A stretch of 64,000 nt of DNA, from positions 67,779 to 131,778 of the forward strand of contig JAWKZK010000011.1 in the NCBI GenBank assembly GCA_041396005.1, written 5' to 3'. This document shows, piece after piece, positions 2,887 through 55,604 of the stretch. The stretch comes from Halioglobus sp. GTDB taxonomy: Bacteria; Pseudomonadota; Gammaproteobacteria; Pseudomonadales; Halieaceae. Below the pieces are notes generated by a model. The model was not told the origin of the DNA. It ran no database searches and saw only the letters and a program-made list of their open reading frames with translations. Numbering within the stretch: the first letter of the stretch is position 1; each line of letters begins with the position of its first letter. The position numbers and the translations under genes are program-made.

Positions 2887-3009
2887 GTGATTGTCGCGCT
2901 CCCTTGGGCGGGGTGATGGCCGCATTATGTAGGAGTCGCTCTCACTAGAGTAGGCGGTTTGCCCTGTGGCATGCCGCCTGCTCACCCGCGGGACCCCGGC
3001 AAACAGACC

Positions 3010-5330: not shown

Positions 5331-5353
5331 GCCCGATCTCCCCCGCCCGCCGT

Positions 5354-6421: not shown

Positions 6422-6430
6422 GGTTTGCTC

Positions 6431-7843: not shown

Positions 7844-8031
7844 AGATTTCGCTCACGGAGTTCTGTTTACCGGATGAGCCGCTGCTGGTGATGATGCATG
7901 CGCTGGATTGCGCCCTGTATCAGGCGACAGTTGCGCCGCGCGGCGCGCAACACCCTGCTAGAGAGTGGAACGTAGGTTCGCGGTGCCCATGGGGTGCCGA
8001 CGGTGACGAGTTTTACTGGAGAAAGGGATGA
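7840..8031 (+). pseudogene. Probable truncated DUF6482-like remnant
   Basis: The start MKISLTE...HALDCALYQATV resembles small proteins found beside DUF3833 genes, but the ORF is only 63 aa and loses similarity midway. Confidence 0.35.
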
Positions 8032-9497
8032 GTAACCTGTTGACGCTGGATGAAGAGATCGCCGTGGATAGACCGCTGAACGAGGTATTTGCCTACGTAT
8101 CGGAATTCTCGCGGATTGAAGAATGGGACCCGGCGGTACAACGCGGCGTGAAGCTCACGCCGGGCAAGCCGGCAGTGGGGAGCGAATACCGGATCGAGAT
8201 GAAGGCCGGGTTCTCGCTGCACTACGTAATGCGTGAGCTTGAGCCCGATGCACGCATGCTCATGGATGTTACCTCGAAGGTGTTCAGCGCGCGCGAGGAA
8301 ATCCTGTTCAGGGAGCATCCCGAAGGCGGGTCGATCGTGCGCTACATCGCCACGTTCGATTTTCCCACGCCGCTGGCCACGGCCAACAAGCTGTACCCCG
8401 CGGTGATGGACAAGGTGGGCAAGAAAACCATGGAGGGGCTCAAGCGGGCGCTGGAAGACGATTTCGAGGCGCCGGAGCCCTCCACCTTGACGGAAATCGC
8501 TGACAAGCTGGTGCTGCCAGGGATCTGGCGGTTCACCCGCCTTGGCTATAAAGCCTCGCGCAAGCACTGGAACCCGGTGTCGGCCTACCTGGGCGACCGG
8601 CATGCGATCGTCACCGGCTGCACCTCGGGTGTCGGCCTGGCCACCGCGCAGGCGCTCGCGGCCATGGGCGCCACGCTGACGCTGGTGGCGCGCGATGCGC
8701 AGAAAGCGCGTAATGTGGCGGAAGATATTGTCAGGCAGTCGGGCAACCCGTCGGTACGCGTCGAACTGTGCGACATGAGCGTGATGTCCCAAGTGCATGC
8801 GCTGGCCGACCGGCTCCTGAGCCGGGCTGAACCGGTGCACATGCTGGTCAACAACGCTGGCGCGCTGTTCAACGAGAGGCAGCTGACGCCCGAGGGGCTG
8901 GAAAAAAGCTTTGCCCTGTTGCTGCTGGCGCCTTACATACTGACCGAGCGGCTGCACCCGCTGCTGAGTGTGGCGGACGACGCGCGGGTGGTAAACGTCT
9001 CTTCCGGCGGCATGTATTCGCAGAAAATTCACGTGGACGACCTGCAAACCGAGCGCGGAAAATATTCAGGGCCGGTGGCCTATGCGCGCGCCAAACGCGG
9101 CCTGATGATACTCACCGAACACTGGAGCGAGCGCTGGCGTCCGGACGGCATCGCGGTCAACGCGATGCACCCCGGCTGGGCCGACACACCCGGAGTGGAG
9201 AGCTCCCTGCCAGGATTCTATCGGCTGACGCGGCGTTGGCTGCGCAGCCCCGAGGAGGGCGCCGACACCGCGGTGTGGCTCGCGGCGTCCACCGAAGCGG
9301 GACGGGTGTCCGGCGAATTCTGGCTGGACCGGGATATCCACCCCAGCCACCTGTCGTCACGCACGCGGGAAACGCCCGTGGAGCGGGCACGGTTGCTGGA
9401 GGTGTTGGCGGAGCTCGCTGCAAGTACGCAGGACAAGGCTGGCAAGGGCGGCGCAGCAGCCAGGCGGCGCGGGAAAAAGACGCAGCGCAGTGGGTGA
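8028..9497 (+). CDS. SRPBCC domain fused to a DHRS12-like short-chain dehydrogenase
   Basis: N-terminal VFAYVSEFSRIEEWDP; TGCTSGVG, LVNNAG, YARAK, MHPGWADTPG motifs. Confidence 0.85.
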   Translation: MSNLLTLDEEIAVDRPLNEVFAYVSEFSRIEEWDPAVQRGVKLTPGKPAVGSEYRIEMKAGFSLHYVMRELEPDARMLMDVTSKVFSAREEILFREHPEGGSIVRYIATFDFPTPLATANKLYPAVMDKVGKKTMEGLKRALEDDFEAPEPSTLTEIADKLVLPGIWRFTRLGYKASRKHWNPVSAYLGDRHAIVTGCTSGVGLATAQALAAMGATLTLVARDAQKARNVAEDIVRQSGNPSVRVELCDMSVMSQVHALADRLLSRAEPVHMLVNNAGALFNERQLTPEGLEKSFALLLLAPYILTERLHPLLSVADDARVVNVSSGGMYSQKIHVDDLQTERGKYSGPVAYARAKRGLMILTEHWSERWRPDGIAVNAMHPGWADTPGVESSLPGFYRLTRRWLRSPEEGADTAVWLAASTEAGRVSGEFWLDRDIHPSHLSSRTRETPVERARLLEVLAELAASTQDKAGKGGAAARRRGKKTQRSG

Positions 9498-12847: not shown

Positions 12848-14083
12848 CTAGCGGGCGCGATGCTCTGCAATGACCTCCCGGAACAGGCTCATGTACTCAT
12901 CGGCGACGCGCGGCAGGTGGTAGGCCGCGGCCGCGGTGGCGGCTGCGGCACCCAGGGCCTTGCGACGCGGCTCGTCCGCCAGCAATGCCAGAATGTCCTT
13001 TGCCCAGACTTCAGGCCGATCGTCGTGCACCAGTAGCCCGTTCACACCGTGCTGGATGAATTCCGGCACGTAGCAGCGGGCTGCGGCGATCACCGGGCGA
13101 CCTCGAATCAACAGCTCTATCAGGCCCCAGTTGCCGCTGCCGAACAGCACGGGGTACATGAACAGGTCCACAGCATGCAGCAGGTCGGAAAACCGGTTGT
13201 AGGGCAGTTTACCGGTGAGCGTGAAACGGCTGCGATCCACCTTGTAGCGGCGCATGAGGTGCTCGAGAAAGGTCATGCCCTTGTCCTTTCCATACTTGCG
13301 ATCCAGAAAGAGCTGCTCGTAGCCGTAGGTTGTGGCGGCCGGATCACCGATCACCACGAACTGGATATTGTCGTCCAGTTTGCTCAGGTGCGCGGCGGTG
13401 GCCATGAAACTGTCCAGGCCCTTGGCCGAACTCAGGTCACGCGCGGCGAAGCCCAGGGTTTGCTTGCCCGGGGGTAATTCCACGCCGCAGGGCACGCGCT
13501 CCGCGACCTTGTCTGGGTCCATGCCTTCGAAGCGGGCCACGATCTTGTGCTGCAGATAGTCCGGAAACATCTGCCGGGCATACTCCGTGGGCACCAGCGT
13601 GCGCGGGCTCTTGATCACCTCGTAGTAGGAGAGCATCTGCATGTTCTTGTCGATGAGGCGTTGCGGCTCCGTGGGCGGAAAGCGTGAATCCCAGCCGTGA
13701 TCCGCGTAGGAGGGAAATTCGATATAGGGAATGACCGGAATATCAAACTCGTCGTACAGAAAATGGGGCGAGCCGAGACTGCCGTGGGCCACGATCAGAT
13801 CCAGTTTGCGTTTTGCCAGGAACTCTTTCAGTGCGCGGAACAAACCGAGACTGATGCGCCCCGCGCGCTCAACCTTGCCCGAGTAGTAGTAGCTGTTGGC
13901 GGCCATCATGTTGCCGTCCGGCTGCAGGGGCAGCAGTTTCTGGTAGCGGGACTGGTTCTTTTTCATGTTGCCGGGCGTTGTCATGTACCACGCGTCAGCC
14001 GCGCCGGAAGTGTTCAGGTATTCGCAGAGATCGCTGAACTGCGAGGGGCAGACCGTGTGTACGAAGAGGATTTTCGGCTGCAT
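12848..14083 (-). CDS. Glycosyltransferase family 4
   Basis: ILFVHTVCPSQF; FAARDLSSAKG; E motif in WGLIELL...PEFIQHGVNGLLV. Confidence 0.85.
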   Translation of the reverse strand: MQPKILFVHTVCPSQFSDLCEYLNTSGAADAWYMTTPGNMKKNQSRYQKLLPLQPDGNMMAANSYYYSGKVERAGRISLGLFRALKEFLAKRKLDLIVAHGSLGSPHFLYDEFDIPVIPYIEFPSYADHGWDSRFPPTEPQRLIDKNMQMLSYYEVIKSPRTLVPTEYARQMFPDYLQHKIVARFEGMDPDKVAERVPCGVELPPGKQTLGFAARDLSSAKGLDSFMATAAHLSKLDDNIQFVVIGDPAATTYGYEQLFLDRKYGKDKGMTFLEHLMRRYKVDRSRFTLTGKLPYNRFSDLLHAVDLFMYPVLFGSGNWGLIELLIRGRPVIAAARCYVPEFIQHGVNGLLVHDDRPEVWAKDILALLADEPRRKALGAAAATAAAAYHLPRVADEYMSLFREVIAEHRAR

Positions 14084-14212
14084 AAAGGAACCTGGCGTGT
14101 GGCTATGGAGTCTATGTCACGGGAGTTGCAATGGGCCAGCCAGTGAAGATACCCTCTAGGCGCGAAAAGGCAACCGACCAAACCAGGCGCCTGCGGGCGC
14201 AAGCCGGAACGA

Positions 14213-14778
14213 ATGATGAGAATCTTTCCCAGTGTGAAAGCCGTGAACAGACTGATGATTTCAGGCTTGCTGTTCCTGGGCAGCCTGTCTGCCGGCGCCT
14301 CGCAGGCGCATGACGGGCCCGAGATCCAGGCGATAACCGATGACGGCAGGGCCGTGGTGTTGCGCAAGGACCACACCTGGGATTTCGTGGAGGTGCAGGC
14401 GGGCGATCCGGCCACGAGCGCCGTACTGACCGTAACGGAAGTGAAAGAAATGCACGAGGCCTGCGGCCTGCAGATTCGCCTGCAGAACAACATGACACAT
14501 CGTATTCGCAGCATCGTGCCGCGGTTCTCGGTATACAATGACAGGAACATCGAGTTCGACTCCAAGTCCCAGTCGTTTACCGCGGTGAAGCCCACCCGCA
14601 GCCAGTACAAGCGTATTCAGTTCAACGGCATCGGCTGTCACGAGATCAAGTGGGTGCGCGTGCATGACGCGGCTCGCTGCACCATTGGCGAAGTGGTGGA
14701 CATGTTCAACGAGGAGGAGGGCAGTGTCTGTCCTATATCTATGTTGAACCCAGCAACCTGATCAATATTTCCAAGTAA
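14213..14778 (+). CDS. Exported hypothetical protein (DUF3157-like N-terminus) with a probable 1-bp frameshift near 14720-14724
   Basis: Signal peptide; ITDDGRAVVLRKDHTWDF. A shifted frame continues CLSYIYVEPSNLINISK to TAA at 14778. Confidence 0.6.
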
Positions 14779-14813
14779 CGGCGTCCCCGACGCATTCACA
14801 GGGAACGCCCGCC

Positions 14814-15683
14814 ATGAAGTTTGTACTGTCTACCTCGTTCAGTAGCGTAGCGCATTTGACGCAACTTGCGCCGGTGGCCGATTCCCATGGCTGGCACGCG
14901 ATGTCGTTTTCGGACCACGTGGTGAATCCCGAACAGATCAGTACGCCGTATCCTTATACCGACGATGGCAGCCGCCGCTGGCAGCCGTTTACCGATTGGC
15001 CGGACCCGTGGGTGATGATCGGCGCGCTGGCGACGATCACCGAGCGGTTACGCTTCACCAACAATATTTTCGTGTTGCCCATGCGCAACCCGTTCCTCGT
15101 GGCCAAGGCCATCAGCACGGCGGCCATTGTTTCCAACAACCGGGTGACGCCTGCGATAGGGGTGGGCTGGTCGGCGGACGAGTTCGCGCTGATGGATGCC
15201 GATTTCAAAACACGCGGCAAGCGCACCGATGAGATGCTGGAGGTTCTGCGCCTGCTATGGACGGGAGAACTCGTGGAGTATCGGGGCAAGTATTACCAGT
15301 TCGACGCGCTGGAGATGAATCCGGCGCCCACCGCCTACATTCCCATCTGGGTGGGCGGCATTTCCGATGCGGCGATGCGCCGCGCCGCGCGCCTGGGCGA
15401 CGGCTGGGTGACCGATCTGCAAACCAGCGCTGACATTATCGAGTGCATCGAGCGCATCAAGGTATGGCGCAACGAGTATAGGCGCGCGGATCAGCCCTTC
15501 GACATCATGGCCACGCCCTCGGACGCCTGGGACGTGGACGGCTACAAGCGCCTGGCGGATGCCGGCGTGACGCATATCCTCACCATGCCGTGGCCGTTTT
15601 ACCATGGCGACACAGACAACGTGGACAAGAAGATCGACAGCGTAAAGCGCTACGCCGACGATATCATCAGCAAGTTCAACTAA
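14814..15683 (+). CDS. LLM-class (TIGR03619-like, nominally F420-dependent) oxidoreductase
   Basis: SDHVVNP, WPDPWVMIG, GVGWSADEF, WVGGISDAAMRRAARLGDGW. Confidence 0.88.
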   Translation: MKFVLSTSFSSVAHLTQLAPVADSHGWHAMSFSDHVVNPEQISTPYPYTDDGSRRWQPFTDWPDPWVMIGALATITERLRFTNNIFVLPMRNPFLVAKAISTAAIVSNNRVTPAIGVGWSADEFALMDADFKTRGKRTDEMLEVLRLLWTGELVEYRGKYYQFDALEMNPAPTAYIPIWVGGISDAAMRRAARLGDGWVTDLQTSADIIECIERIKVWRNEYRRADQPFDIMATPSDAWDVDGYKRLADAGVTHILTMPWPFYHGDTDNVDKKIDSVKRYADDIISKFN

Positions 15684-16521
15684 GCGAAGGCGCAGCGTCG
15701 TCTGCAGCGCGCCAGGCCTCCAGCAGGGGTCGCGTATCCCGTTGCCAGGGGTGGAAACCCTCGCGGTAGTATTCGCGGTAGGCCGGCCAGAGGCGGCGCA
15801 GAATGCCGCCGCGGGCGAACAGGAAGCGCCAGCCCTCGCGCCACAGCCGCAGGTTCCACAGCTTGCCGTCGCGGCGCAGCATGTGCACCACTCCGTACAG
15901 CACATCCACCATCAGGAAGAACGTGGCGCCGCGCATTGCGCGCCGGCGCAGCTTCTCGCTGCCGCCCATGGCGCGGAACACGTCGAAGGCCACGGCCTTG
16001 TGTTCCATTTCTTCCGCTGCATGCCAGTCCCAGAGCTCGCGCATCGCCGGTTCGGCCTCGCCGATCATGGGGTTGTCCGGCGCCAGGGCAGATTCCGCCA
16101 TGATCGCGGTGAGGTGTTCCAGCGCCGCGGTAACGGCGAGTTGCTCCAGCGGTGAAAGCCGTTTCTGTGCGGTGCCGATGTTTTTCGAAAGGCGCCGCTC
16201 CTGCGCGGCAAGATCGTAGCCACGCGCGGTGCATAGTGTTTCGTTGTAGCGCTGGTGCTCGCGGCGATGGTAGCCCTCCTGGCCGCAAAAGCCGCGAATC
16301 TCTTCCTGCAGCTTCGGGTCATCGATCTGGTCGGCGAAGTGACGCACGCTGTCAATGAAGAACTTTTCACCCTGTGGAAACGTGATGGACATGGCGTTGA
16401 ACCAAGCTGTCTTGAAGGCGTGGTTATCGAACCAGTCCCGTTGCAGGCATTCGGCAATGGCGTACTCGCGGTTGCGCGGCGTGATGGCCACGTCCTGCGG
16501 TGTGTGAGATTGCTGCTGCAT
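15676..16521 (-). CDS. Predicted metal-dependent hydrolase (PF10118-like)
   Basis: FPQGEKFFIDSVR, QEGYHRREH, WHAAEEMEHKAVAFDV. Confidence 0.9.
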   Translation of the reverse strand: MQQQSHTPQDVAITPRNREYAIAECLQRDWFDNHAFKTAWFNAMSITFPQGEKFFIDSVRHFADQIDDPKLQEEIRGFCGQEGYHRREHQRYNETLCTARGYDLAAQERRLSKNIGTAQKRLSPLEQLAVTAALEHLTAIMAESALAPDNPMIGEAEPAMRELWDWHAAEEMEHKAVAFDVFRAMGGSEKLRRRAMRGATFFLMVDVLYGVVHMLRRDGKLWNLRLWREGWRFLFARGGILRRLWPAYREYYREGFHPWQRDTRPLLEAWRAADDAAPSLS

Positions 16522-16547
16522 CGGTGACCCTCCCGGGAAATCCCCGC

Positions 16548-17348
16548 CTAGCCCATACCGCCCCAGGCGCGTGGCATCTGCATGTTGAGGCGCTCCAGGC
16601 CGCCGTTCACGCCGAGGATGTCGCCGGTGACATAGCTCGCCGCGGGAGAGCAGAGATACAGCGCGCCAAGCGCAATATCCTCGACCTCGCCCAGCCGGCC
16701 CATGGGTGTCAGATCCACCATGGTCTGTTCTATCTCCGGCGTCAATACCGTGTTGAGCGCATCGGTTTTGGTGGAACCCACGGCGATCGCGTTCACGCGC
16801 ACCTTCGGCGCGAATTCCTGCGCCAGTTCCTGTGTCAGCAGCGACAGCGCGCCCTTGGCGGTGCCGTAGGCGGCGAAGCAGGGTGTGGGCTTGTGGCCGG
16901 CGATGGAGGAAATGTTAAGGATCGCGCCGCTGCCGGCGGTATCCACCATGACGGGCGCACAGATGCGCGACATCTCGAAGGCGCTGGCAACGTTGAAACG
17001 GAAGGCGCCGATAAACTCCTTGGTGGTGGTTTGCGACACCGGTTTCGGTGGGAACCCCCCCGCGTTGTTGACCAGAATGTCGATGCGCCCGAATTCCTGC
17101 ACGGCCCGGTCAGCGAGATTCTGCAACTGGCCGTCTTCCATGACGTCGGTGAGTACGACCAGTGCCCGCTGCCCGAGCGCGCGGACAGACTGGGCAACCT
17201 GCTCCAGGTCGGATTCGGTGCGCGCGCCGATGACCACGTCCGCGCCGGCCTCCGCGAAGGCCCGCGCGATCGCCGCGCCGATCCCCTTGCCTGCACCGGT
17301 GATCACTGCCACCTTGCCCTTGAGACTGAACTGATCCATGAGTGCCAT
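16548..17348 (-). CDS. Classical SDR oxidoreductase (7-alpha-hydroxysteroid dehydrogenase/FabG-like)
   Basis: TGAGKGIG, NNAGG, YGTAK; GGGAGA RBS upstream of MALMDQ. Confidence 0.9.
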   Translation of the reverse strand: MALMDQFSLKGKVAVITGAGKGIGAAIARAFAEAGADVVIGARTESDLEQVAQSVRALGQRALVVLTDVMEDGQLQNLADRAVQEFGRIDILVNNAGGFPPKPVSQTTTKEFIGAFRFNVASAFEMSRICAPVMVDTAGSGAILNISSIAGHKPTPCFAAYGTAKGALSLLTQELAQEFAPKVRVNAIAVGSTKTDALNTVLTPEIEQTMVDLTPMGRLGEVEDIALGALYLCSPAASYVTGDILGVNGGLERLNMQMPRAWGGMG

Positions 17349-34210: not shown

Positions 34211-34226
34211 TGGATCGATAATTGCT
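34211..34226 (+). promoter_or_regulatory. Sigma-54 (-24/-12) promoter of the PEP-CTERM gene
   Basis: TGGATCGATAATTGCT, which has the GG-N10-GC spacing. Confidence 0.7.
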
Positions 34227-34307: not shown

Positions 34308-35129
34308 ATGACAATCAAAGTATGGAAAGCGGCCTGTATGGCCGTGATCGGTAGCGTCGCCGCGCTGCACGCAGCGCCTGGCCTGGCCGCCATCCAGACC
34401 CAAACCTGGGATTTCAGCAATTCCAGCCAGAGTTTTTCCGGTACGGGATTTGGCAACTCGCTGAACCTGACCTCCTCCGATGGTGTTAACCTGACGATCA
34501 CCGGCTGGTCCGATACCAATGATGTCAGCGGCCCTGACAGAATCGAGACGGCGAAGCTGATCTGGGCGCAGAACAGTGCGCTGGGCATCCAGAACCGCGA
34601 CGAGGACACCAATTCCCCGAACCACTCTATCGACAGCATCACCTCCGATGCCGATGGCGAGTTTGACATGCTGCTGCTGCAGTTCGACACGGCCGTTCGC
34701 CTGACCGGCATCGACCTGAACTGGGCTGTGGGCGGTAATGCTGCCAACCGCGCCGATGTGTCCATTCTGGCCTATGACGGCAGCGGCTCCACGTCGCTTG
34801 GCGGCAGCACCTGGGCCAACGTGCTGTCCAGCAACGGTGGCAACTACGATTCCGTAGGCAATTATGCCAACGTGGGTCTGAGCTACTACGCAGTGAATCC
34901 TGCCCAGGTGGAATCCACCACCTGGCTGGTAGGTGTATACAACCCGGTATTCGGTAGCGGCGGTGACGCCGGCGACGATGGCTTCAAGCTCGGCCTCATC
35001 ACCACCGAAACTGATGATCCCCAGGATGATCCGCCCGGCGAAGTGCCGGTGCCCGGCAGCGTTCCCCTGATGCTGCTTGGTTTGGTGCTTCTGCGCCGTC
35101 GGATCTCCGCCCTCGGAGGGAAGGCCTAG
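34308..35129 (+). CDS. PEP-CTERM exosortase-dependent surface protein (XDP1-like)
   Basis: Signal peptide; S/G/N/D-rich body; LGIQNRDED..SPNHSID; tail VPVPGSVPLMLLGLVLLRRR. Confidence 0.88.
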   Translation: MTIKVWKAACMAVIGSVAALHAAPGLAAIQTQTWDFSNSSQSFSGTGFGNSLNLTSSDGVNLTITGWSDTNDVSGPDRIETAKLIWAQNSALGIQNRDEDTNSPNHSIDSITSDADGEFDMLLLQFDTAVRLTGIDLNWAVGGNAANRADVSILAYDGSGSTSLGGSTWANVLSSNGGNYDSVGNYANVGLSYYAVNPAQVESTTWLVGVYNPVFGSGGDAGDDGFKLGLITTETDDPQDDPPGEVPVPGSVPLMLLGLVLLRRRISALGGKA

Positions 35130-35156: not shown

Positions 35157-35190
35157 AAAAAGCGGAATTTGCAAATTCCGCTTTTTTTTT
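35157..35190 (+). terminator. Rho-independent terminator, perfect palindrome
   Basis: AAAAAGCGGAATTTGCAAATTCCGCTTTTT followed by further T residues. Confidence 0.85.
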
Positions 35191-35249
35191 GCCTGCGTTA
35201 CCATCGCGTGTCACCGTGGGCCACGCCCGGATTCCGGAGGATTGAAGCC

Positions 35250-38063
35250 TTGAACAGGACGATGAGCTGCTTGCTGGCCCTGCTGTTGGTTTGCAGCGCT
35301 GGGGCGTTTGCCCAGTCGGAAGGCGCGTATTACGAGCAGGGGGTACAGGCTTACGCCGAAGGCGAATACGCGGAAGCCTACATTCACCTGAAAAACGCGC
35401 TGCAGGCAGACCCCAATATGGTGTCGGCTCGTTTGCTGCTGGCGAAAGTGCATTTCAATGCAGGCAATGTGCACGGCGCTGCCAAGGAATCCGAGGAGGC
35501 ATTGCTGCTGGGAGCGGATATCAATCTGGTTCTGCCGGTTTACGGTCCGGCACTGATCGTGCTCAGGCAGACCGACAAGTTGTTCGAACTGGAGAAAGTG
35601 GCGGACGAGTTCACGCCGGAAACGCAGTTTGAGTGGGCTTTGCTGAAAGGGCAGGGTTACCTGCAGCGCTCGGAGCCGGATCTTGCCCGACGTGAATTCG
35701 AACGCGCGGCCGAGAAGTTCCCCAACGATGTGCGCTCCAATAATACGCTGGCGGCGTTGTACATTGATAACGGCATGCTGGAAGAGGCCGCGGGCCTGCT
35801 GGAAAAATCCCTGCTGCTGGACGCGAACAATGTCAAAACGCTGGAACTGTCGGCGGAACTGGCGATTGCCGAGGAACACTACGATAAGGCCCTGCGCCTG
35901 CTCAATGCTGCCTATGAACAGGACAGCGCAGACCTGCGTGTGTTGCGCAGCCTGGCGCGGGTACATTTGCTGCAGGGCAACGAGCAGGAGATGGAGCGGT
36001 ACCTCGAACTGATTCTGGAGCAGTCGCCGGATGATCCGGCAGCCACCCTGTTGATCGCGATCACCTCTATTGACCGGGGCGACACCGAAATAGGCGATGC
36101 CATGCTCAGCGAGCTGAGCCAGAAGCTGTCGCGGGTGGACGCGCTGCGCCTGCAGACCACCGATGGCATGCTGTTCATCCAGGCTGCGTCCGATTATGTG
36201 CGCGGCAGTGATCGCAGCGCGATCGACCTGTTCAACACCTATCTGGCGCGTAACCCCTCCGATCTTGCGGCCATCAGCATGCTGGTGGATCTCTACCTGC
36301 GCAATGGCGAAAGCCGTCGCGCCAACACCCTCTTGAGCGACTCACGCGAATTTATTACCAACGATCTTGCGCTGTCGCTGCAGCTTCTGCACCTGTATAT
36401 CCAGAACGGCAGCGTGCTGAACGCCCGGGAGTTGCTGGAGGACCTGCGCAAGAGCACTGACGATAATCCTTTCGTAACGATTCTCGAGGCGGAACTGGAG
36501 CGCAGTCAGGGCAGGCCCGCCGAGGCGCTCGCCGTGCTGGATTCGCGTGACTTTGCCGACGATCCGCCGCTCTCCGCCGGGCTGCTGCGCGGCGCATTGC
36601 TGCTGGATCTCGGGCGCCTGGAGGAAGCGCGCGAGGTGGCGTCCGGGCTGCAGCTTAGCGCTGCCGACGAACTGCGGGTGCAGAACTTTGCAGCCATTGT
36701 CTACCTGCGCAGCGGGCGCCTGAAGGATGCGGAGCGCGCTGTGAATGCCGCTCTCAAGCTGTCGCCGAGCGACCAGGAAGCGCGCTTCAGCCAGGCCATG
36801 CTGCTCAAGCAGCGTGGCAAGCGCGAAGAAGCGGCGCGCCTGTTGAACGAAATACTGGAAGATCGTCCCAGTCACACCAAGTCGATTCTGTTGATGGCGC
36901 AGATCCTCTTTGAACAGGGACGCTCGGAAGAGGCCATCGACTGGAGCAAAAAAGTCTATGTGTATGACAAAACATCGACCCTGCCCGACGAATTCCAGGT
37001 GGGCGTTTATGCGCAGCAGGGAGATTGGGAAGAGGCGCTTACAGCCTTCCTTGCGCTGAGCAAAGCGGACCCGTTAAGCGATGTGTACCTGGTGCAACTG
37101 GCGGAAATCTATCTGCGTCTGGGCGATCTCGAAGTGGCACAGCGGCCGCTGCGCAGGCTGTTCGTGCTGTGGAAGGACGACCCGGCCAAATTGCGCAGGT
37201 TGGCAGACCTGCAGATCGCCGCGCAGAACCCTGCCGAGGCGCGCCTCACGCTCGAAGCCGCGTTGAAGCTGGAGCCTGAATCCCTCGACTCCCGCCTGTC
37301 ACTGGTGCGCCTGGACATTGCACAGGAGCGCTACGCGGCGGCGGAAGACCGTCTCGACGCGCTGTTCGAGTTGATTGGCGACAACGCCGAGGTTGCGCTG
37401 TTGTACGGCGAGGTGGCGCTGGCCGAAGGCGAGCGCGAAACCGCGCGTGCCCACTACCTGCAGGCGCTGGCGCTGGATCCGAAGCAGTCGCAGGCCGTGT
37501 TGCGCCTGTATGACCTCAGCCTGCAGGGCGTTGGCGGCGAGGAGTTTACCGCCACGCTTGAGAAAATCCTGCAGCAGGCATCGCTGCCGCCGTGGCAGGT
37601 GCGCCTGCTGGCGGACAGTTACCTGGTGCAGGGTAGATCGGACCGCGCCCAACGCTACTACGAGACGCTCCTGGAACACCCGGACTACGGTACGGATACC
37701 GGCGTGCTGAACAATCTGGCGAATATCTATGCCGAGGACGATCTGGACAAGGCACTGGCAACCGCGATGCGTGCGGTGGAAAGCGGCGGCGAAAAGAGCT
37801 ACGCCCTGCTGGACACCATCGGCTGGATACTCACCCGCCAGGGCAAGGAAGCGGACGCGTTGCCCTACCTGCGCAAGGCCTACAGTATCAACTCGCGTGA
37901 CCCGGAGGTTCGCTACCACACGGCGGTGGCATTGCTGGGCCTGAAGCGCGAGGCGGAGGCGTTGACCGAGTTGCGCGCCGCGCTGGCGGGCGATGCAGAG
38001 TTTGCTGGTCGTGCGGACGCGCAAACGTTGCTGGATTCACTGACCGACGACCCCGTGCCCTAG
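35250..38063 (+). CDS. prsT: PEP-CTERM system TPR-repeat protein (PrsT-like)
   Basis: Signal peptide; AYIHLKNALQ...ARLLLAK..GN; many TPRs; ending LNNLA...LDTIGWIL...PEVRYH; adjacent to a PEP-CTERM gene. Start at TTG 35250 or ATG 35262. Confidence 0.8.
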   Translation: MNRTMSCLLALLLVCSAGAFAQSEGAYYEQGVQAYAEGEYAEAYIHLKNALQADPNMVSARLLLAKVHFNAGNVHGAAKESEEALLLGADINLVLPVYGPALIVLRQTDKLFELEKVADEFTPETQFEWALLKGQGYLQRSEPDLARREFERAAEKFPNDVRSNNTLAALYIDNGMLEEAAGLLEKSLLLDANNVKTLELSAELAIAEEHYDKALRLLNAAYEQDSADLRVLRSLARVHLLQGNEQEMERYLELILEQSPDDPAATLLIAITSIDRGDTEIGDAMLSELSQKLSRVDALRLQTTDGMLFIQAASDYVRGSDRSAIDLFNTYLARNPSDLAAISMLVDLYLRNGESRRANTLLSDSREFITNDLALSLQLLHLYIQNGSVLNARELLEDLRKSTDDNPFVTILEAELERSQGRPAEALAVLDSRDFADDPPLSAGLLRGALLLDLGRLEEAREVASGLQLSAADELRVQNFAAIVYLRSGRLKDAERAVNAALKLSPSDQEARFSQAMLLKQRGKREEAARLLNEILEDRPSHTKSILLMAQILFEQGRSEEAIDWSKKVYVYDKTSTLPDEFQVGVYAQQGDWEEALTAFLALSKADPLSDVYLVQLAEIYLRLGDLEVAQRPLRRLFVLWKDDPAKLRRLADLQIAAQNPAEARLTLEAALKLEPESLDSRLSLVRLDIAQERYAAAEDRLDALFELIGDNAEVALLYGEVALAEGERETARAHYLQALALDPKQSQAVLRLYDLSLQGVGGEEFTATLEKILQQASLPPWQVRLLADSYLVQGRSDRAQRYYETLLEHPDYGTDTGVLNNLANIYAEDDLDKALATAMRAVESGGEKSYALLDTIGWILTRQGKEADALPYLRKAYSINSRDPEVRYHTAVALLGLKREAEALTELRAALAGDAEFAGRADAQTLLDSLTDDPVP

Positions 38064-49958: not shown

Positions 49959-50346
49959 AGCCACATGACACAATCCGGCCTGCTTTGCCCTCCGTACCTT
50001 CGGTGGCATAACCGTCACGCTTCCACCAATCGATGCCACCCATCAGCTCTTTGACCGTAAACCCGAGCCTCGCCAAATTGAGCGCACCCTTCGTCGACGC
50101 GTTGCAACCGATGCCATCGCAGTACGTAACATACATCGCGGATCTGTCGAGGTGCAAGGTGCTTTCCTCGGTCATGACGCGGTGCGGGATATTCAATGCA
50201 TTCGGAATATGCTCGCGTTCGTATGCCTCCGAAGAGCGTGCATCGATAACCTTCACCTTCGCTTTTTCCTGCAAAGTCTCAAACAAATCCGATGAATCAA
50301 TCTCGAATTGGAGCTTGGCTTCATAAAAACTGATTTGATCAACCAT
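49954..50346 (-). CDS. Rhodanese-like domain protein (cassette)
   Basis: VIDARSSEAYEREHIPNA, YCDGIGCNASTKGA, LMGGIDWW. Confidence 0.9.
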   Translation of the reverse strand: MVDQISFYEAKLQFEIDSSDLFETLQEKAKVKVIDARSSEAYEREHIPNALNIPHRVMTEESTLHLDRSAMYVTYCDGIGCNASTKGALNLARLGFTVKELMGGIDWWKRDGYATEGTEGKAGRIVSCGC

Positions 50347-50364
50347 TGGCACGATCCTTTTCAC

Positions 50365-50439
50365 GTATAACGCGTCAATAACCGGCGCAGCGTTGCGGCG
50401 TCCGGCGCCGTAGCCCCAAAGTTCATTGCCATGTTGGCA
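50365..50439 (-). mobile_element. attC site (canonical)
   Basis: TGCCAAC-ATGGC-AATGAACT...GGTTATT-GACGC-GTTATAC; L boxes pair with one extrahelical G. Confidence 0.9.
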
Positions 50440-50458
50440 CTTTGAATCCCAGGCGAAT

Positions 50459-50809
50459 TCATGACCTCAGAATCTTTTCCATAGATCTGCCCTTGGCAAG
50501 CTCATCGATCAGTTTATCGAGGTAGCGAATATTGCGCATGAGTGGGTCTTCGACCTCCTCAACACGAACCCCACATACCACTCCCCTGATGAGGGATGCG
50601 CTGCGATTGATTGCCGGCGCCTCGGCAAAGAATGCGGCCACGTCATTCTCGCTGCCAACCTGCTTTGCCAGGTCGTCAGCGCTGAAAGCTGTGAGCCAAC
50701 AAATAATCTGAACGACCTCCTCTTCTGTTCGTTTCTTCTTCTCGGCTTTCTGGACATAGAGAGAATAGATCTTTGAGAAAGCCATAGAGAAGACTTTGTG
50801 ATCAGACAT
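50459..50809 (-). CDS. DUF2200 family protein (cassette)
   Basis: [51 protein letters not shown]. Confidence 0.9.
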
Positions 50810-50827
50810 TTCTTCGTCTCCCGAGTG

Positions 50828-50853
50828 CGCCAACGCTTCAATCCTTGGCCACG
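50828..50853 (-). mobile_element. attC right half only
   Basis: Top strand CAAGGAT-TGAAGC-GTTGGCG; the left arm is missing. Confidence 0.6.
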
Positions 50854-50893
50854 GAAAAACCTCGAAATGTATTCTCCCGTACCGATCAAGTAA

Positions 50894-51529
50894 CTAGACG
50901 TATTGAACGCGGTTGCGAACTCTTCTCAATCGTGTCTGCAAGAGCAACAGAGCCATAACTAGCAATGCTGCTGTTGGTGGCGTAGAAATTTCATGCAATT
51001 CCGCATCAATACGCAAGGAAATATCGTACCCGGTGCTCGTTCGCCACTCCCAGTTTGACCAGGTTCCTCTCGCTGCGCCATTCTCAAGAGGCTTGGGGGA
51101 GTCCATGGGCATAAACCCCCTGAATGTCTGAAATTCATCGACGCCAAAAACAATCCAGTAGTTGCCAGAAGCAAGATCAAGATCAATATCATAGACCCCA
51201 TTGTAGCCACCTTGAGGGCTCCCAAAACGATAATCCGCTTTTGAGTCGAAATAGACATCCAGGTCATTGGGCTTGTCATCGAGAGAACCGAGAACCATCA
51301 GGTTGAATGTGCCAACAATGACTTCCCCGCTCATCCAGCCTTCAATGCTGTTGAGCGTATACGGCGAATCCAAAGTTATATACCCAGCAAGTTCCTGTAC
51401 GCCGGCTCTCAAGGTTCCACCAGCATTCTTTTGAATTGGCTCGCCGGTATCGATGATTAGAGATGCAAAAGTCCATGGGGCATTTAGCATGAGAATTGCG
51501 AGGGTATAGGCTTTCAATATTGGCGGCAC
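50894..51529 (-). CDS. Exported protein with a PEP-CTERM-like C-terminal sorting tail (inside the cassette array)
   Basis: Signal peptide ending in FA; tail EISTPPTAALLVMALLLLQTRLRRVRNR; GTG start after AAGGA. Confidence 0.7.
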   Translation of the reverse strand: MPPILKAYTLAILMLNAPWTFASLIIDTGEPIQKNAGGTLRAGVQELAGYITLDSPYTLNSIEGWMSGEVIVGTFNLMVLGSLDDKPNDLDVYFDSKADYRFGSPQGGYNGVYDIDLDLASGNYWIVFGVDEFQTFRGFMPMDSPKPLENGAARGTWSNWEWRTSTGYDISLRIDAELHEISTPPTAALLVMALLLLQTRLRRVRNRVQYV

Positions 51530-51569
51530 CTGGGTGTTCCTTATTGCTCTTCCACCTGATTATGTTAGC

Positions 51570-51735
51570 TGAGAACGAAAGCGTTCGCCTGATTAATGTC
51601 CGCTCATCTGGAAGGTGCTTTCGCCAGCGCAATGTTTCGAGACATGAAGTGTGCCCAGTGAAGCTCGCGGCAGCCCGCGCGCTGTAAACGCGTCCGGCTA
51701 GCGAAGGGAGTGCGCTACCCGCACCTGTTGAGGTG
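51570..51735 (-). mobile_element. Degenerate attC-like sequence(s)
   Basis: CCTCAAC left core at 51727-33; GCGTCCGG central motif shared with the 50365 and 53976 sites; right core damaged; possible GTTCTCA core at 51570-76. Confidence 0.45.
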
Positions 51736-51967
51736 CCTCACGGAGCCTACTACGACCAGTGCGCCACAACGCCCATAACGTCGGCCGAACCAGTACTGCA
51801 GCCTCAGGTACAGATACAACTAGTAGACGATCGCTGGGACAGCTCTCGAATAGACACAGAATCCGGGGTGCTGAGCATGCTCCCCAACCAGAGGTTTTCA
51901 GACTGGCTGTACAGGCGAAGACCGCACCCGCCAGGGCGTATGTGTTGTCGAGCCTCCAGTCAGTAGA

Positions 51968-52420
51968 CTAGTAGACTTCGTAGGTAAAAAGATTCCAAAC
52001 GTTGGGAACGGGAACTGCAACGCCGTTTTCTTCGTAGGGTGCATATTCGAACTGGGCTGCGGCCTCCAGAGCAGAATTTGAGAAAACGCCTTCGGGATAT
52101 TCATCGATAATTCGTAGATTTTCCATGTCGCCCGATTCCGTAATATTGTAGACCACCAGCACCCATCCTGTTTTTCTCCGATCTAGTGCTCTAGGCGGGT
52201 AGCCAGGCGCGACTTTTTTGGTGGGAAGGTAGTTTCCGACTGGAAGATCGATACCCCGAGACCTGGCTTCCTTTGCCTGGGCCTGCGACGCACGAAGGTT
52301 TACGGATTGATCGAGGCCATAAGCAGACAGGCCAGGAAGGGGGGTCTTCCTTGTAGCTTCGCCCGTATTGGCGCAGGCCACTAGCGTCGAAACCAGGAGG
52401 ATTATCAATAGTCCATTCAT
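51968..52420 (-). CDS. TonB C-terminal domain lipoprotein (cassette)
   Basis: Lipobox LVAC; PGYPPRAL...GWVLVVYNITESG..N.RII....VFSNSALEAAAQFEYAP. Confidence 0.85.
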   Translation of the reverse strand: MNGLLIILLVSTLVACANTGEATRKTPLPGLSAYGLDQSVNLRASQAQAKEARSRGIDLPVGNYLPTKKVAPGYPPRALDRRKTGWVLVVYNITESGDMENLRIIDEYPEGVFSNSALEAAAQFEYAPYEENGVAVPVPNVWNLFTYEVY

Positions 52421-52456
52421 ATGTTCACTGCTCGGCCGGTTCTGTAACGCTAAGGA

Positions 52457-52504
52457 AGCCAACGCCGGTAAGCTTTTGGTGAGCGATTGACCGTCTGGTT
52501 ATGG
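52457..52504 (-). mobile_element. attC site, shortened
   Basis: CCATAAC core overlapping the upstream stop codon; GTTGGCT core; only 48 bp, with weak L-box pairing. Confidence 0.65.
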
Positions 52505-52813
52505 CTCTCGGGTAATGATCTCATAGACTGCGGATATCCCACCATCCAGAAAGGTGTTCACGATAAAGGGTACGATCGCTCCTATCATCAGCCCCCAGAA
52601 CAACGAGAATACCAACGAGTTTTCCTTTCTCGATTGTGTTGGCCAGATGGACTCCAATTGCAGTGCGACGATGATCATCACGAGTGCTGACAAGCCAACA
52701 AAATAACCAATCACCGGGGATGCCGATGATCCGAGTATAACCAGGACCACAACGATCAACACGCCAAGCAAAGACTTCACTTGTGGCCTTGCAAGACCAT
52801 GGCCTCTAAACAT
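52499..52813 (-). CDS. Small three-TM hypothetical protein (cassette)
   Basis: Hydrophobic ORF; its stop TAA lies in the attC core CCATAAC; the 5' core GTTATGG is complementary. Confidence 0.7.
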   Translation of the reverse strand: MFRGHGLARPQVKSLLGVLIVVVLVILGSSASPVIGYFVGLSALVMIIVALQLESIWPTQSRKENSLVFSLFWGLMIGAIVPFIVNTFLDGGISAVYEIITREP

Positions 52814-52839
52814 ATTTACGTTGACCCTGCGGCAAAGTG

Positions 52840-52894
52840 CCATAACGCCTCAAGAAGAGCGGTTAAACCGCTCCGGTTGAGCGACATGTTAGGC
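52840..52894 (-). mobile_element. attC site
   Basis: GCCTAAC...GAGCGGTTTAACCGCTC hairpin...GTTATGG; 55 bp. Confidence 0.85.
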
Positions 52895-53326
52895 GGCATC
52901 GGGCACCAAACGCTTGGCGTAGAAGATGTTTGAATGCCCTTGTGGATGGTCGGCGACGGTCGCTCGCTTTTCGTAGCCAAGCCGCTTGTAGAACCAGGGT
53001 GCCTGGAAGCTGTGAGACGAGACGAGTACGACCGCGCAACCCTTGCTCCTTGCGTTGTCCTCGGCGCCTTGCAACAGCGCCCTACCAAGTCCTTGCCTTC
53101 GTTGTGCCTCAGCTACCCAGAGATGCGAGATGAAGCAGCAGCCGCCCCAGGTATACCCGGAGATGCCCGCGAGGATGGCGCCCAAGTTGTTTCGCTGGAT
53201 CAGGCTGAACGACTCTCCATCGAAGTACCCCGTCACCTTGGAGTTGAACTCATAGATGCGGTCTGCCAGGAATGCCTCAATCTCCTGGCAGTCGCCAACA
53301 CGAAGTTCGATGGGAGGGTGTTTCAT
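52889..53326 (-). CDS. GNAT family N-acetyltransferase (cassette)
   Basis: LWVAEAQRRQGLGRALL, SSHSFQAPWFYKRLGYE. Confidence 0.92.
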   Translation of the reverse strand: MKHPPIELRVGDCQEIEAFLADRIYEFNSKVTGYFDGESFSLIQRNNLGAILAGISGYTWGGCCFISHLWVAEAQRRQGLGRALLQGAEDNARSKGCAVVLVSSHSFQAPWFYKRLGYEKRATVADHPQGHSNIFYAKRLVPDAA

Positions 53327-53329
53327 GCC

Positions 53330-53383
53330 GCCTAACGCCGCAGGCTGAGGCCGCTGTAAGTCCGTTGCTGCGCCCTGTTAGCT
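53330..53383 (-). mobile_element. attC site
   Basis: AGCTAAC...GTTAGGC; 54 bp; contains the upstream stop codon. Confidence 0.85.
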
Positions 53384-53956
53384 TTCATTTAACAGCACGT
53401 ACTCTCTGATGCCATTTACTAAACTCTGTGGATTTTCTTTGTAGAAGTTGGATGCCCATATCTCAACATTTCTTAAGAAATCAGTAAGATCCTTTTTGGC
53501 AGATAGTATCAAGTCACTTACTTCTGTTTGGCTAAATTCTATACTGATAGCCTTTTCATTGGCAGGCTCATCGCTCCACAATGTAATCTGATCTCCATTA
53601 AATATAAATGTAGGGCTTGGATCGTGCCCCATCCAATTGCTCTTATGCTGAGGCAGGCCTTCAATTACATCTTTCCAATCCTGAAAGTCTGCACAGCAAG
53701 ACGGTTTGATGGACACTCCATTTTTCTCGAATAGCGCACCACCACCAAGCGCTATTTCCTCGCTCAGATAAAGAGCACTAATAAACTCTGAATCTAAAGC
53801 CAATTCATTGAACTCGAGTAAAGACCCTATAAAAACTCCAATCTCATTTTGAGTGGTATTTCCATCTAAGATGATGGTTCCTGTGCGTTTCGGGAATTCC
53901 ACCTTAAATGCGTATTTCTCAACATCGAAATAATAGATATCGAAACATATCTTCAT
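53378..53956 (-). CDS. Hypothetical protein (cassette), AT-rich
   Basis: 192-aa ORF with PSCC..FQDW and WMGHDPSP motifs; bounded by complementary cores GTTAGCT / AGCTAAC. Confidence 0.8.
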   Translation of the reverse strand: MKICFDIYYFDVEKYAFKVEFPKRTGTIILDGNTTQNEIGVFIGSLLEFNELALDSEFISALYLSEEIALGGGALFEKNGVSIKPSCCADFQDWKDVIEGLPQHKSNWMGHDPSPTFIFNGDQITLWSDEPANEKAISIEFSQTEVSDLILSAKKDLTDFLRNVEIWASNFYKENPQSLVNGIREYVLLNES

Positions 53957-53975
53957 TTATTTAACGCTCTAAGGA

Positions 53976-54059
53976 AGCTAACGCCTACCGCTGCGGCGCG
54001 GAAACCGCGCAGCGGTTTTTGCGTCCGGCCCCGCAGGTGCGCACAGCCGGTTGTTATGT
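53976..54059 (-). mobile_element. attC site
   Basis: ACATAAC...GTTAGCT; 84 bp; GC-rich internal stem. Confidence 0.85.
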
Positions 54060-54329
54060 GTGTTTCTTAACCCCGTGATCATAGTCAATCTGCTCCTCAC
54101 TACCTGTAGCAATATAGTCGCTTATTCCTTGGCGCTTGTGCCCTGGCAACGACGGAGGTGGATTTGACATCCAGCCATAGAACACCAAACCGACTAGTGG
54201 GATAAGAAGAACGATACTCCAAAGTGTCTTCGCATATAAAGGTCGATAACTACGCCATAGAAAGAAATATGTGAATAGAACAATCACATAATTCACGGCG
54301 AGAAAAACTATAGCTCCAAGGTTATCCAC
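54054..54329 (-). CDS. Small two-TM protein, PLDc_N-like (cassette)
   Basis: KTLWSIVLLIPLVGLVFY motif; stop codon in the attC core. Confidence 0.7.
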   Translation of the reverse strand: MDNLGAIVFLAVNYVIVLFTYFFLWRSYRPLYAKTLWSIVLLIPLVGLVFYGWMSNPPPSLPGHKRQGISDYIATGSEEQIDYDHGVKKHT

Positions 54330-54335
54330 GATGCC

Positions 54336-54821
54336 TCAGCCCACATAACGCTTCAGGTTGCGGCGGTACGCCGTCCGCAACCCTGACTGGTTATGGTGCA
54401 CATATTGAACCCCACGATGAGCAACCCACACTCCAAGAAGCGTACCAATCACGTAAGGAATGCCAAAACTAAGCAGAGTACCTAGGGCGAGAATGTCGAA
54501 TGAAATGAAAAGGAGCGACGATATGTGGGCATCCGTTGGTATGACCATGACCAGAGCTAGAAATAGGCCAAAGGAATAGAGACTTAAGACGACTACTGCT
54601 AGGCCATAGAGCACTCCTAAAAAATTTAGGAAAAATCCCGAGGCAAAGCGATGAAACATGAACTTGGCTTGCAGGTACCACGCCCATGCGACTGCAAGAA
54701 GAGTTAGAGGGACGCCGTAGAAGGTAAACAAAAATAGTGATTTGATCACAAGGCAAATCGCTGCAGAGCTCAACCCAGCACCTATTGCAGCGACGATAGC
54801 GGCCTCAGTGCGCGGGCTCAA
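54336..54821 (-). CDS. Four-TM hypothetical membrane protein (cassette) that reads through its attC
   Basis: Hydrophobic ORF with a TTG start; the last about 20 codons are encoded by the attC sequence. Confidence 0.7.
   Translation of the reverse strand: MSPRTEAAIVAAIGAGLSSAAICLVIKSLFLFTFYGVPLTLLAVAWAWYLQAKFMFHRFASGFFLNFLGVLYGLAVVVLSLYSFGLFLALVMVIPTDAHISSLLFISFDILALGTLLSFGIPYVIGTLLGVWVAHRGVQYVHHNQSGLRTAYRRNLKRYVG
54343..54396 (-). mobile_element. attC site (canonical)
   Basis: CCATAAC-CAGTC-AGGGTTGC...GCAACCT-GAAGC-GTTATGT; 54 bp. Confidence 0.92.
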
Positions 54822-54827
54822 CGTGCA

Positions 54828-54881
54828 CCATAACGCCAGCGGTTGCGGCTGTAGGTCGTCAGTAACCCGTATTTGTTATGT
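54828..54881 (-). mobile_element. attC site (canonical)
   Basis: ACATAAC-AAATA-CGGGTTAC...GCAACCG-CTGGC-GTTATGG; 54 bp. Confidence 0.9.
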
Positions 54882-54900
54882 TTCTGGGAAGCTGGTAAAG

Positions 54901-54938: not shown

Positions 54939-55133
54939 ATGAGAACCAACATTGTCATAGATGATCAATTAATGGCAGATGCTCTAAAGGCTACTGGATT
55001 GAGCACCAAGAAGGAAGCTGTTGAGGAAGGCCTGAGGCTACTTATTCGGAGAAAGAAACAACAGAAAATCCGAAAGCTGCGAGGAAAGCTGAAGTGGGAA
55101 GGTAACCTGGATGAGATGCGAGACGCCTCGTGA
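54939..55133 (+). CDS. vapB: VapB antitoxin (DUF2191 type)
   Basis: MRTNIVIDDQLMADAL...TKKEAVEEGLRLL; GTGA overlap with vapC. Confidence 0.92.
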   Translation: MRTNIVIDDQLMADALKATGLSTKKEAVEEGLRLLIRRKKQQKIRKLRGKLKWEGNLDEMRDAS

Positions 55134-55531
55134 TACTTGTCGATACCAGCGTATGGATCGACTATTTTAATGGTATTGAGAATGCACAAACCCATTCGCT
55201 GGATACCGCCCTAGAAGAAGGCACAGTTGCCATAGGTGATCTAATCTTTCTGGAGGTACTTCAAGGCTTCAAAAACGACAAAGATTTCCGAACAGCAAAG
55301 AGCACACTGAAGACACTGGATATATATGAATTACTGGGCAAAAAAATGGCCTTAAAGAGTGCCGAATATTATCGCACACTGCGAAAAAAGGGAATCACGA
55401 TACGAAAAACGAACGATGTGATAATCGCTACTTTTTGCATTGAGAATAGAATCCCTCTTCTTTTTAGTGATAGAGATTTTTTTCCATTCGTCGATCATCT
55501 GAAACTACGCGCCGTAGTCGAGGAAACATAA
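55130..55531 (+). CDS. vapC: VapC PIN-domain toxin
   Basis: ILVDTSVWIDYF, LEVLQG, TNDVIIA, LLFSDRDF. Confidence 0.95.
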   Translation: MILVDTSVWIDYFNGIENAQTHSLDTALEEGTVAIGDLIFLEVLQGFKNDKDFRTAKSTLKTLDIYELLGKKMALKSAEYYRTLRKKGITIRKTNDVIIATFCIENRIPLLFSDRDFFPFVDHLKLRAVVEET

Positions 55532-55585
55532 CGCTTCAAGCACCGGCGGTGAAAAATGGAGCCGGCTGAGCTACTCTTGACTGTG
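55526..55585 (-). mobile_element. Array-proximal attC (right half intact, left half degenerate)
   Basis: Top strand CGGTGCT-TGAAGC-GTTATGT; same TGAAGC spacer as the 50828 and 54343 sites. Confidence 0.65.
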
Positions 55586-55604
55586 TTTAAAAGGGGATCT
55601 TGCC

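Follow-up and report, generated by a model that had tools for sequence, protein, structure and literature searches.

The gene studied here, ORF_A, lies in a 64 000-nt stretch of the genome of a Halioglobus sp. (GenBank assembly GCA_041396005.1, contig JAWKZK010000011.1, positions 67,779 to 131,778 of the forward strand; hereafter the window) and codes for a putative exported protein that ends like the substrates of exosortases and is carried in an array of integron attC sites. It is an intact open reading frame (ORF) on the minus strand (Table 1), encoding 211 aa if translation begins at a GTG codon, or 207 aa from the TTG codon taken as start in the public gene call. It is found inside a block of low guanine plus cytosine (GC) content (~49.8-55.6 kb; 49.7% GC versus 63.6% for the rest of the window), where it shares its strand with the other cassettes. 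Its own values (48.6% GC, and 0.505 for GC3, i.e. the GC fraction at third codon positions) can be set against 62.1% GC for the genome and a GC3 of 0.75-0.83 for the neighbouring host genes, so that the low GC and array orientation given in the initial annotation of the locus stand. No paralogue was detected by tblastn of the genome, and 60 relatives, 36 of them from the same genus, gave no full-length homologue and generic tail matches only. On composition and distribution, ORF_A is a horizontally acquired gene, foreign to the genus. The explanation that we favour, and hold to be probable, is that of a horizontally acquired, exported protein of a PEP-CTERM family residing in a decayed cassette of a CALIN (a name said to have been given by Cury and co-workers in 2016 to a cluster of attC sites lacking an integron integrase), in a host equipped with the exosortase XrtA.

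The N-terminus of the protein reads MPPILKAYTLAILMLNAPWTFA/SLIIDTGEP, the slash marking the predicted cleavage point. The signal peptide, already part of the initial annotation and borne out here, was read from the sequence, from a helix in the structural model and from conservation: Ala22 stands in an alignment column with at least 90% conservation, directly before the IVDTG motif, and would suit residue -1 of a signal-peptidase cleavage site. In the AlphaFold2 model, built from a 54-sequence alignment (mean predicted local distance difference test score, 92.1), residues 3-15 form a helix at the N-terminus, residues 23-178 an all-beta sandwich and residues 185-208 a second helix at the C-terminus. 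The mature part is predicted with confidence to fold as a jelly-roll beta-sandwich of ~155 residues. A Foldseek comparison with the PDB returned generic matches (jelly-roll proteins, carbohydrate-binding modules, PHR domains and phage baseplates, with a query-normalized TM-score of at most 0.53); a profile search of PDB sequences gave nothing significant, and a Pfam and NCBIfam scan of the whole protein gave no domain match. By analogy with PEP-CTERM matrix proteins, a glycan- or matrix-binding role at the cell surface is plausible; the surface-layer subunit, antigenic variation and phage-receptor masking put forward in the initial annotation are speculation. The C-terminus, ...AELHE-ISTPPT-AALLVMALLLLQT-RLRRVRNRVQYV, combines a short motif, a hydrophobic helix (TAALLVMALLLLQT) and a terminal basic cluster (RLRRVRNR).

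The nature of this tail becomes clearer when the homologues are considered. Searched exhaustively with phmmer, 1.84 billion cluster representatives yielded 418 relatives of ORF_A at E ≤ 1e-3 (best non-self E value, 1.2e-20), with lengths of 200-220 aa and alignments that span almost the whole protein (residues ~5-205). Such an exhaustive search was needed: with the single ORF_A protein as query, a word-indexed homologue search recovered ORF_A alone and a related-locus search found none. The homology extends over the full length of the passenger, the IVDTG and YWVAFEV motifs included; the window copy obtains 187.6 bits with the family profile, and 12 of the 15 most conserved family columns are kept in ORF_A (conserved residues: D27, T28, G29, Y124 and W125). 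The nearest relative, at 36% identity, is on a Tara Oceans scaffold. The tails of the best 150 of the 418 representatives carry PEP in 104 cases and xPxP in 27 (131/150), with a helix and a basic cluster behind the motif; the helix is Gly/Leu-rich and precedes RRK. When the 54 aligned members were compared with curated models, 31 matched TIGR02595, 11 PEPxxWA-CTERM, 10 VPLPA-CTERM, 3 VPDSG-CTERM and 14 NF041539 (choice_anch_R), and some members carry the public name 'PEP-CTERM sorting domain-containing protein'. As in the 'choice-of-anchor R' model NF041539, one beta-sandwich passenger is paired with alternative anchors (PEP, PEPxxWA, VPLPA or VPDSG). The best member reaches an E value of 2.6e-7 with NF041539; ORF_A itself has no direct match (it does not reach E 0.01) and belongs to it by transitive homology only. 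The family is, as judged from these alignments, widespread and unnamed, related to NCBIfam 'choice-of-anchor R', and its members almost always end in an exosortase sorting signal. On three unrelated contigs (L009, L010 and L012), the homologue has a gene of 404-443 aa exactly 24 nt before it, one with a weak Metallophos match, which suggests a two-gene operon conserved in part of the family and absent at ORF_A.

Aligned with the tails of its homologues (VPEPxT...LLGxGL...RRK), ORF_A has I-S-T-P-P-T in the columns of V-P-E-P-x-T, and we therefore regard its tail as descended from a PEP-CTERM tail; descent of the whole protein from a PEP-CTERM family is, on these alignments, almost certain. Of the Pro-Glu-Pro/VPxP motif itself, the last Pro only is retained. 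The first Pro is replaced by Ser and the Glu by Thr, so that the signal is to be seen as a degenerate or a minor [VI]SxP variant: sequences of this type (VSAP or VSEP) occur in three of the best 150 family representatives. A hidden Markov model (HMM) that we derived from 129 family tails placed the tail of ORF_A third among 1759 open frames from cassette arrays, with a score of only 8.3 bits.

The array was delineated with a covariance model of the local attC type, R2, made from five sites of the window and six from another contig of the genome (C10), with a hand-set structure of 10 base pairs; R2 is specific to the attC type of this genus, and foreign attC types are beyond its judgement. A previous model, R1, whose structure came from RNAalifold, had three base pairs only and was discarded. 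Five strong, co-oriented attCs were found at 52838-54883 (42-52 bits, E values from 1e-8 to 5e-11). The products encoded in the array are a rhodanese, a DUF2200 protein, ORF_A, a TonB_C protein, a GNAT protein, several proteins of unknown function and a PIN toxin. As the array adjoins no integrase gene (IntI) and has host genes on both sides within its contig, it was classified as a CALIN. It has at least five intact co-oriented attCs plus remnants, low-GC single-gene units, no intI in the contig region and an inverted vapBC-like unit at its head. Nothing essential sets it apart, and its attCs are of the very type seen in the IntI-linked array of the genome.

On either side of ORF_A the sites are less clear. 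Upstream, a weak attC-like site is the likely 5' boundary of the cassette. Downstream, the putative closing site is an imperfect inverted repeat formed by the last eight codons of ORF_A (VRNRVQYV) and the next 65 nt, CGCAAC-CGCGTTCAAT...ATTGAAGC-GTTGGCG. The R''-like CGCAAC and the L''-like GCGTTCAAT are within those eight codons, and the L'/R' side (ATTGAAGC-GTTGGCG) ends 19 nt before the next ATG. Its arms pair with a score of 9.5, true attCs ranging from 6 to 13. Among background AAC..GTT pairs, 17 of 784 (~2%) score at least 9 and 7 of 784 (~1%) at least 10, and the score is a rough guide that separates poorly from background, since four of the five true sites stand at 6-7.5. Both flanking sites being only remnants, the position 'between attC remnants' claimed in the initial annotation is a fair description, with the weak site on one side and the imperfect repeat on the other. 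ORF_A is probably a true, decayed integron cassette located in the older half of the CALIN.

Two side features of the array may be added. The TonB_C-domain protein (51968-52462, minus strand) has a lipoprotein-like signal, and the PIN (VapC-like) toxin gene (55130-55531, plus strand) runs against the orientation of the array. The 440 nt upstream of ORF_A (51530-51968) are non-coding and contain R'-like boxes (GTTGGGG at ~51893, GTTATGG at ~51778 and GCGTTTACA at ~51687); from its sequence, this stretch resembles the remains of one or two cassettes that are now empty. Scanning the window for Rfam families and tRNAs gave no match.

Table 1. Coordinates, in the window, of ORF_A, the attC sites and the host exosortase-related genes
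Feature	Position	Strand	Basis
ORF_A, 211-aa predicted exported beta-sandwich protein, divergent member of a PEP-CTERM ('choice-of-anchor R'-like) family	50894..51529	-	ORF list, homologues, AlphaFold2
Coding part of the predicted signal peptide (residues 1-22; predicted cleavage after TFA)	51464..51529	-	Sequence reading, AlphaFold2 helix 3-15, Ala22 column
C-terminal tail, residues 181-211 (ISTPPT, 14 hydrophobic residues, RLRRVRNRVQYV); degenerate or variant PEP-CTERM signal	50897..50989	-	Column-for-column alignment with family tails
Putative decayed attC closing the ORF_A cassette	50828..50918	-	Imperfect R''/L''...L'/R' inverted repeat, read from the sequence
Weak attC-like remnant, likely 5' boundary of the ORF_A cassette	51681..51735	-	R2 10.2 bits, E 2.7 window-wide, 0.12 over 2.8 kb; arm-pairing score 9
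Weak attC-like remnant after the DUF2200 gene	50363..50436	-	R2 9.4 bits, E 4.3 window-wide, 0.19 locally
Intact attC (host type)	52838..52896	-	R2 42.2 bits, E 1.7e-8
Intact attC	53328..53385	-	R2 42.5 bits
Intact attC (long form)	53974..54061	-	R2 50 bits
Intact attC	54341..54398	-	R2 52 bits; DNA folding z-score -4.14
Intact attC	54826..54883	-	R2 48.4 bits
Degenerate first site, head of the array, abutting high-GC host DNA	55524..55594	-	R2 14 bits, E 0.3
XDP1, host exosortase-dependent surface protein, tail EVPVPGSVPLMLLGLVLLRRR	34308..35129	+	NF041927 227 bits (cut-off 125); TIGR02595 16.5-16.8 bits
PrsT, XrtA/PEP-CTERM system TPR protein	35169..38063	+	TIGR02917 377 bits (cut-off 312)

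The host is a member of the Halieaceae, the best matches of a transporter gene near the array being from an uncultured Halieaceae bacterium (79%) and from Halioglobus sp. (75%). It has what is required for sorting PEP-CTERM proteins. The PEP-CTERM/PrsT system that the initial annotation placed 13-16 kb away is indeed there: the genes for XDP1 (227 bits) and PrsT (377 bits) are 12.8-16.6 kb from ORF_A. The genome possesses a single exosortase, an XrtA fused to EpsI on contig C4 (343 bits for a cut-off of 208), adjoined by a FemAB-family partner. Nine host tails were collected. Their motif is VP[E/A/V/I/L]P, with Glu in one of the nine only.

Integrons are also present elsewhere in the genome. 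The only IntI gene is on contig C9 (196743-197681; TIGR02249, 430 bits), ~0.5 kb from the contig end, and the start of contig C10 (1-2600) contains at least six cassettes with six strong attCs, of the same type as those of the window array, in its first 2.6 kb. C9 and C10 probably join to form the resident chromosomal integron of the genome. Of 41 congeners, 35 have the attC type captured by R2, one genome giving as many as 71 matches, many of them on small contigs; chromosomal integrons thus appear to be general in this Halieaceae genus.

Cassettes coding for exosortase-type proteins were found at two other places. A third small array of the same genome, on contig C16 (~13000-17000; 3000-7000 of locus L056), has attCs of 35.3, 25.1 and 22.3 bits (E values from 2e-7 to 4e-4). 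Between those of 35.3 and 25.1 bits lies the gene for a secreted protein of 211 aa (L056 5831-6466, minus strand) with the tail VVSIPTTLALMSVGLPLIFWSKGRRR, laid out as VVSIPTT, a helix and GRRR. The corresponding ends in homologues of 84, 78 and 63% identity are VVPLPTT..., IVPLPTT... and VVPLPGT..., respectively: VSIP in place of VPLP is therefore the same Pro-to-Ser change as in ORF_A, in an unrelated passenger. Both cassette-borne copies of this genome thus have a [VI]-S-x-P tail (ISTP in ORF_A, VSIP on C16). The other case is from a congener (G018), in a low-GC array (45-50% GC) with eight attC matches on its contig C31 (12000-22045; locus L035). There, an ORF at 7704-8411 (minus strand) encodes a 235-aa protein with a signal peptide, a partial Lcl_C/DUF1566 domain and the tail VPVPATAWLIGSALIGLVWSRRKN, which meets the Pfam PEP-CTERM cut-off (21.5 versus 20.7); the attC matches that flank it (8448-8517 and 7510-7573) have E values of 0.008 and 0.009. 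With ORF_A, this makes three cases in one genus, and integron cassettes can, on the strength of these sequences, carry exosortase-type proteins. A TIGR02595-positive protein with the tail SSVPLPSTVPLFLLGLLGVALRRRHR is encoded at the head of another attC array of G018 (L046 947-1582, plus strand; C1:181000-187000). It was not counted as a cassette, there being no attC between it and the first cassette and its GC content being intermediate. As for the C16 array, it adjoins an IS21-like istA/istB pair, and its exosortase-type cassette includes, upstream of the gene, a sigma-70-like TTGACA...TATAxx region that is conserved in the 63-84% homologues.

How, then, would ORF_A behave in its present host? 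From its sequence and the conservation in its family, the protein is expected to be exported by the Sec pathway and to lose its signal peptide by cleavage at Ala22, after which the C-terminal helix would hold it in the inner membrane, the basic cluster facing the cytoplasm. What follows would depend on XrtA. If the enzyme accepts [VI]-S-x-P, it would cleave the tail and hand ORF_A on to the exopolysaccharide matrix or the cell surface; otherwise the protein would stay in the periplasm, anchored in the inner membrane. That the tail is still processed by the host XrtA seems to us somewhat less likely than not. Another possibility, which we rate at somewhat below even chances, is that the signal is a relic: a decayed PEP-CTERM that XrtA no longer sees, ORF_A being, if made, anchored in the inner membrane, or else a silent cargo at the promoter-distal end of the array. 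Several observations weigh against the explanation that we favour, and most of them speak for such a relic. The initial annotation had recommended scoring the tail with PEP-CTERM HMMs: TIGR02595 and PF07589 gave no match at E ≤ 10, with the whole protein or with the isolated 47-residue tail, and no other curated sorting-tail model reached its cut-off. In the same scan all nine host tails scored 12.9-25.6 bits with TIGR02595, whereas the ORF_A tail had no score, and a genome-wide six-frame search with that model (E ≤ 1) missed it likewise. The exosortase-type, tripartite tail with a variant motif that had been claimed thus holds for its layout and its homology to PEP-CTERM tails, and not for its recognition by curated models. 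Moreover, Pro makes up at least 90% of the first-Pro column when the 54 sequences are aligned, and eight of the nine host tails have it; with Ser in that place, recognition is probably weakened. Thr, in addition, stands for Glu. The attCs around ORF_A are degenerate, unlike the five intact ones elsewhere in the array. No sigma-70 promoter or terminator was detected in 50300-52600, and no sigma-54 motif upstream of ORF_A, the count of that pattern in the window being that expected by chance. The C16 protein, which has likewise lost the first Pro relative to its close homologues, also fits relaxed constraint. Against decay, ORF_A is intact and full-length, with a confidently predicted fold and most of its conserved residues, its helix and basic cluster are intact too, [VI]SxP recurs in independent, intact family members, and the host motif already tolerates any residue in the middle position. 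That the tail came from a donor with another sorting system (MYXO-CTERM/myxosortase, GlyGly-CTERM/rhombosortase or LPXTG/sortase) is very improbable. The only HMM matches do point that way, i.e. MYXO-CTERM (15.6 bits for a cut-off of 20) and GC_trans_RRR (13.9 bits for a cut-off of 15.85), but both are below cut-off and confined to the helix-plus-Arg part (profile positions 16-34 of 34 and 8-25 of 27). The tail has no Cys, Gly-Gly or LPXTG, and the tails of the homologues are of the exosortase type. Cys is given as invariant in MYXO-CTERM in at least part of the work on that system (10.1101/2023.06.07.544157; PMC11980579), and the motif content effectively refutes a non-exosortase sorting of the tail.

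The cassette status of ORF_A can be disputed separately. The 49.95-52.5 kb segment (rhodanese, DUF2200, ORF_A and TonB_C lipoprotein genes) could be a distinct low-GC insertion abutting the true array at 52.8-55.6 kb, an alternative that we consider fairly unlikely. All R2 matches in this segment have E values of at least 0.12 even when searched locally, and R2 gave no match to the 50828-50918 repeat, be it window-wide or locally. None of the candidate sites has a significant folding z-score; that of the repeat is -0.54, as for shuffled sequences, versus -4.14 for a true attC. There is no integron integrase in cis to the window array, the one IntI of the genome being on C9. The homologues of ORF_A, beside which the initial annotation suggested looking for intact attCs, occupy ordinary chromosomal loci in the eight contexts examined, and no host-type attC was seen in any of them; as R2 is specific to this genus, this negative carries little weight. 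Arguing against a separate insertion, the segment has the strand, the compactness of one gene per unit and the ~50% GC of the array, with no break between the two and no other mobility gene in the block. A GCGTT(R)-type R' box is present at each intergenic joint, 10-25 nt before the next start codon, as in the intact sites, and the arms at 50828-50918 and 51683-51733 pair like those of true attCs, which ~1-2% of background pairs do. We keep to a decayed cassette of PEP-CTERM descent as the best explanation, with the probability stated at the outset. A further step would be to regard the Halieaceae arrays as a common pool of ready-made surface or matrix proteins that depend on an exosortase, in which [VI]-S-x-P is a functional alternative or a deliberately attenuated signal and not a product of decay. 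If so, an attenuated signal would let a foreign substrate coexist with the host XrtA. We find this quite unlikely. In 20 arrays of the genus sampled blind to their content (~225 attC matches), no clear PEP-CTERM cassette was seen, the array-edge gene of G018 being the single candidate. Cassettes are therefore not enriched for exosortase-type proteins, their rate being about equal to the genomic background (9 PEP-CTERM proteins per ~3700 genes, the gene total being a rough estimate). The supply of such proteins by cassettes, as proposed in the initial annotation, hence gains two more cases (C16 and C31 of G018), without any enrichment among the ~225 sites.

Compared with the PEP-CTERM/XrtA-EpsH system (Haft et al. 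2006, PMC1569441; TIGR02595, PF07589, TIGR03109), ORF_A shares the general architecture: a predicted signal peptide and, at the other end, a motif, ~14 hydrophobic residues and a basic C-terminal cluster. The host has XrtA, PrsT, XDP1 and 8-9 PEP-CTERM proteins, and the passenger family carries bona fide PEP-CTERM tails. For most PEP-CTERM genes, Haft et al. (2006, PMC1569441) described a single gene behind a large intergenic region, and ORF_A follows that pattern. It differs by its motif (I-S-T-P and not V-P-E-P), by the lack of an HMM match at cut-off and by the absence of a sigma-54 site upstream. It is also foreign and located in an attC array, not in a lineage-specific paralogous expansion, which is thought to be the main way in which PEP-CTERM/exosortase proteins spread (Haft et al. 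2006, PMC1569441). A likeness also exists with PepA and other XrtA-dependent matrix proteins (NF033554; Zoogloea and Aquincola; PMC9012009, PMC9850573), which are small secreted PEP-CTERM proteins acting together with exopolysaccharide. Thirty-four of the 54 ORF_A family members match the PepA model NF033554, and the host tails scanned alone match in the tail end of that model; the passenger domain of the ORF_A family is not homologous to that of PepA.

Integron cassettes are described, in part of one published account (PMC10963911), as rich in secreted and envelope proteins of unknown function. A full-text search of ~8.4 million papers returned none linking exosortase with integron; the terms 'PEP-CTERM' and 'integron' came together in one paper only, on cellulose-mediated floc formation, where 'integron' appears once. 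ORF_A is, from its sequence relationships, a divergent example of known systems, and what is of interest is the travelling of exosortase-type proteins as cassettes and the Ser replacing the first Pro in both copies of this genome. Cassette-borne proteins of this type depend on the sorting enzyme of the host and so exemplify a cassette function contingent on host machinery. The effect is modest, as cassettes are not enriched for such tails and the signal of ORF_A is degenerate.

A last observation concerns the resident system of the host. According to Haft et al. (2006, PMC1569441), a sigma-54 motif precedes most PEP-CTERM genes of proteobacteria, and a sigma-54-like sequence, TGGATCGATAATTGCT, is present ~80 nt upstream of the XDP1 gene (34211-34226, plus strand). 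Since the pattern occurs in the window as often as expected by chance, this site is to be taken as only a hint.

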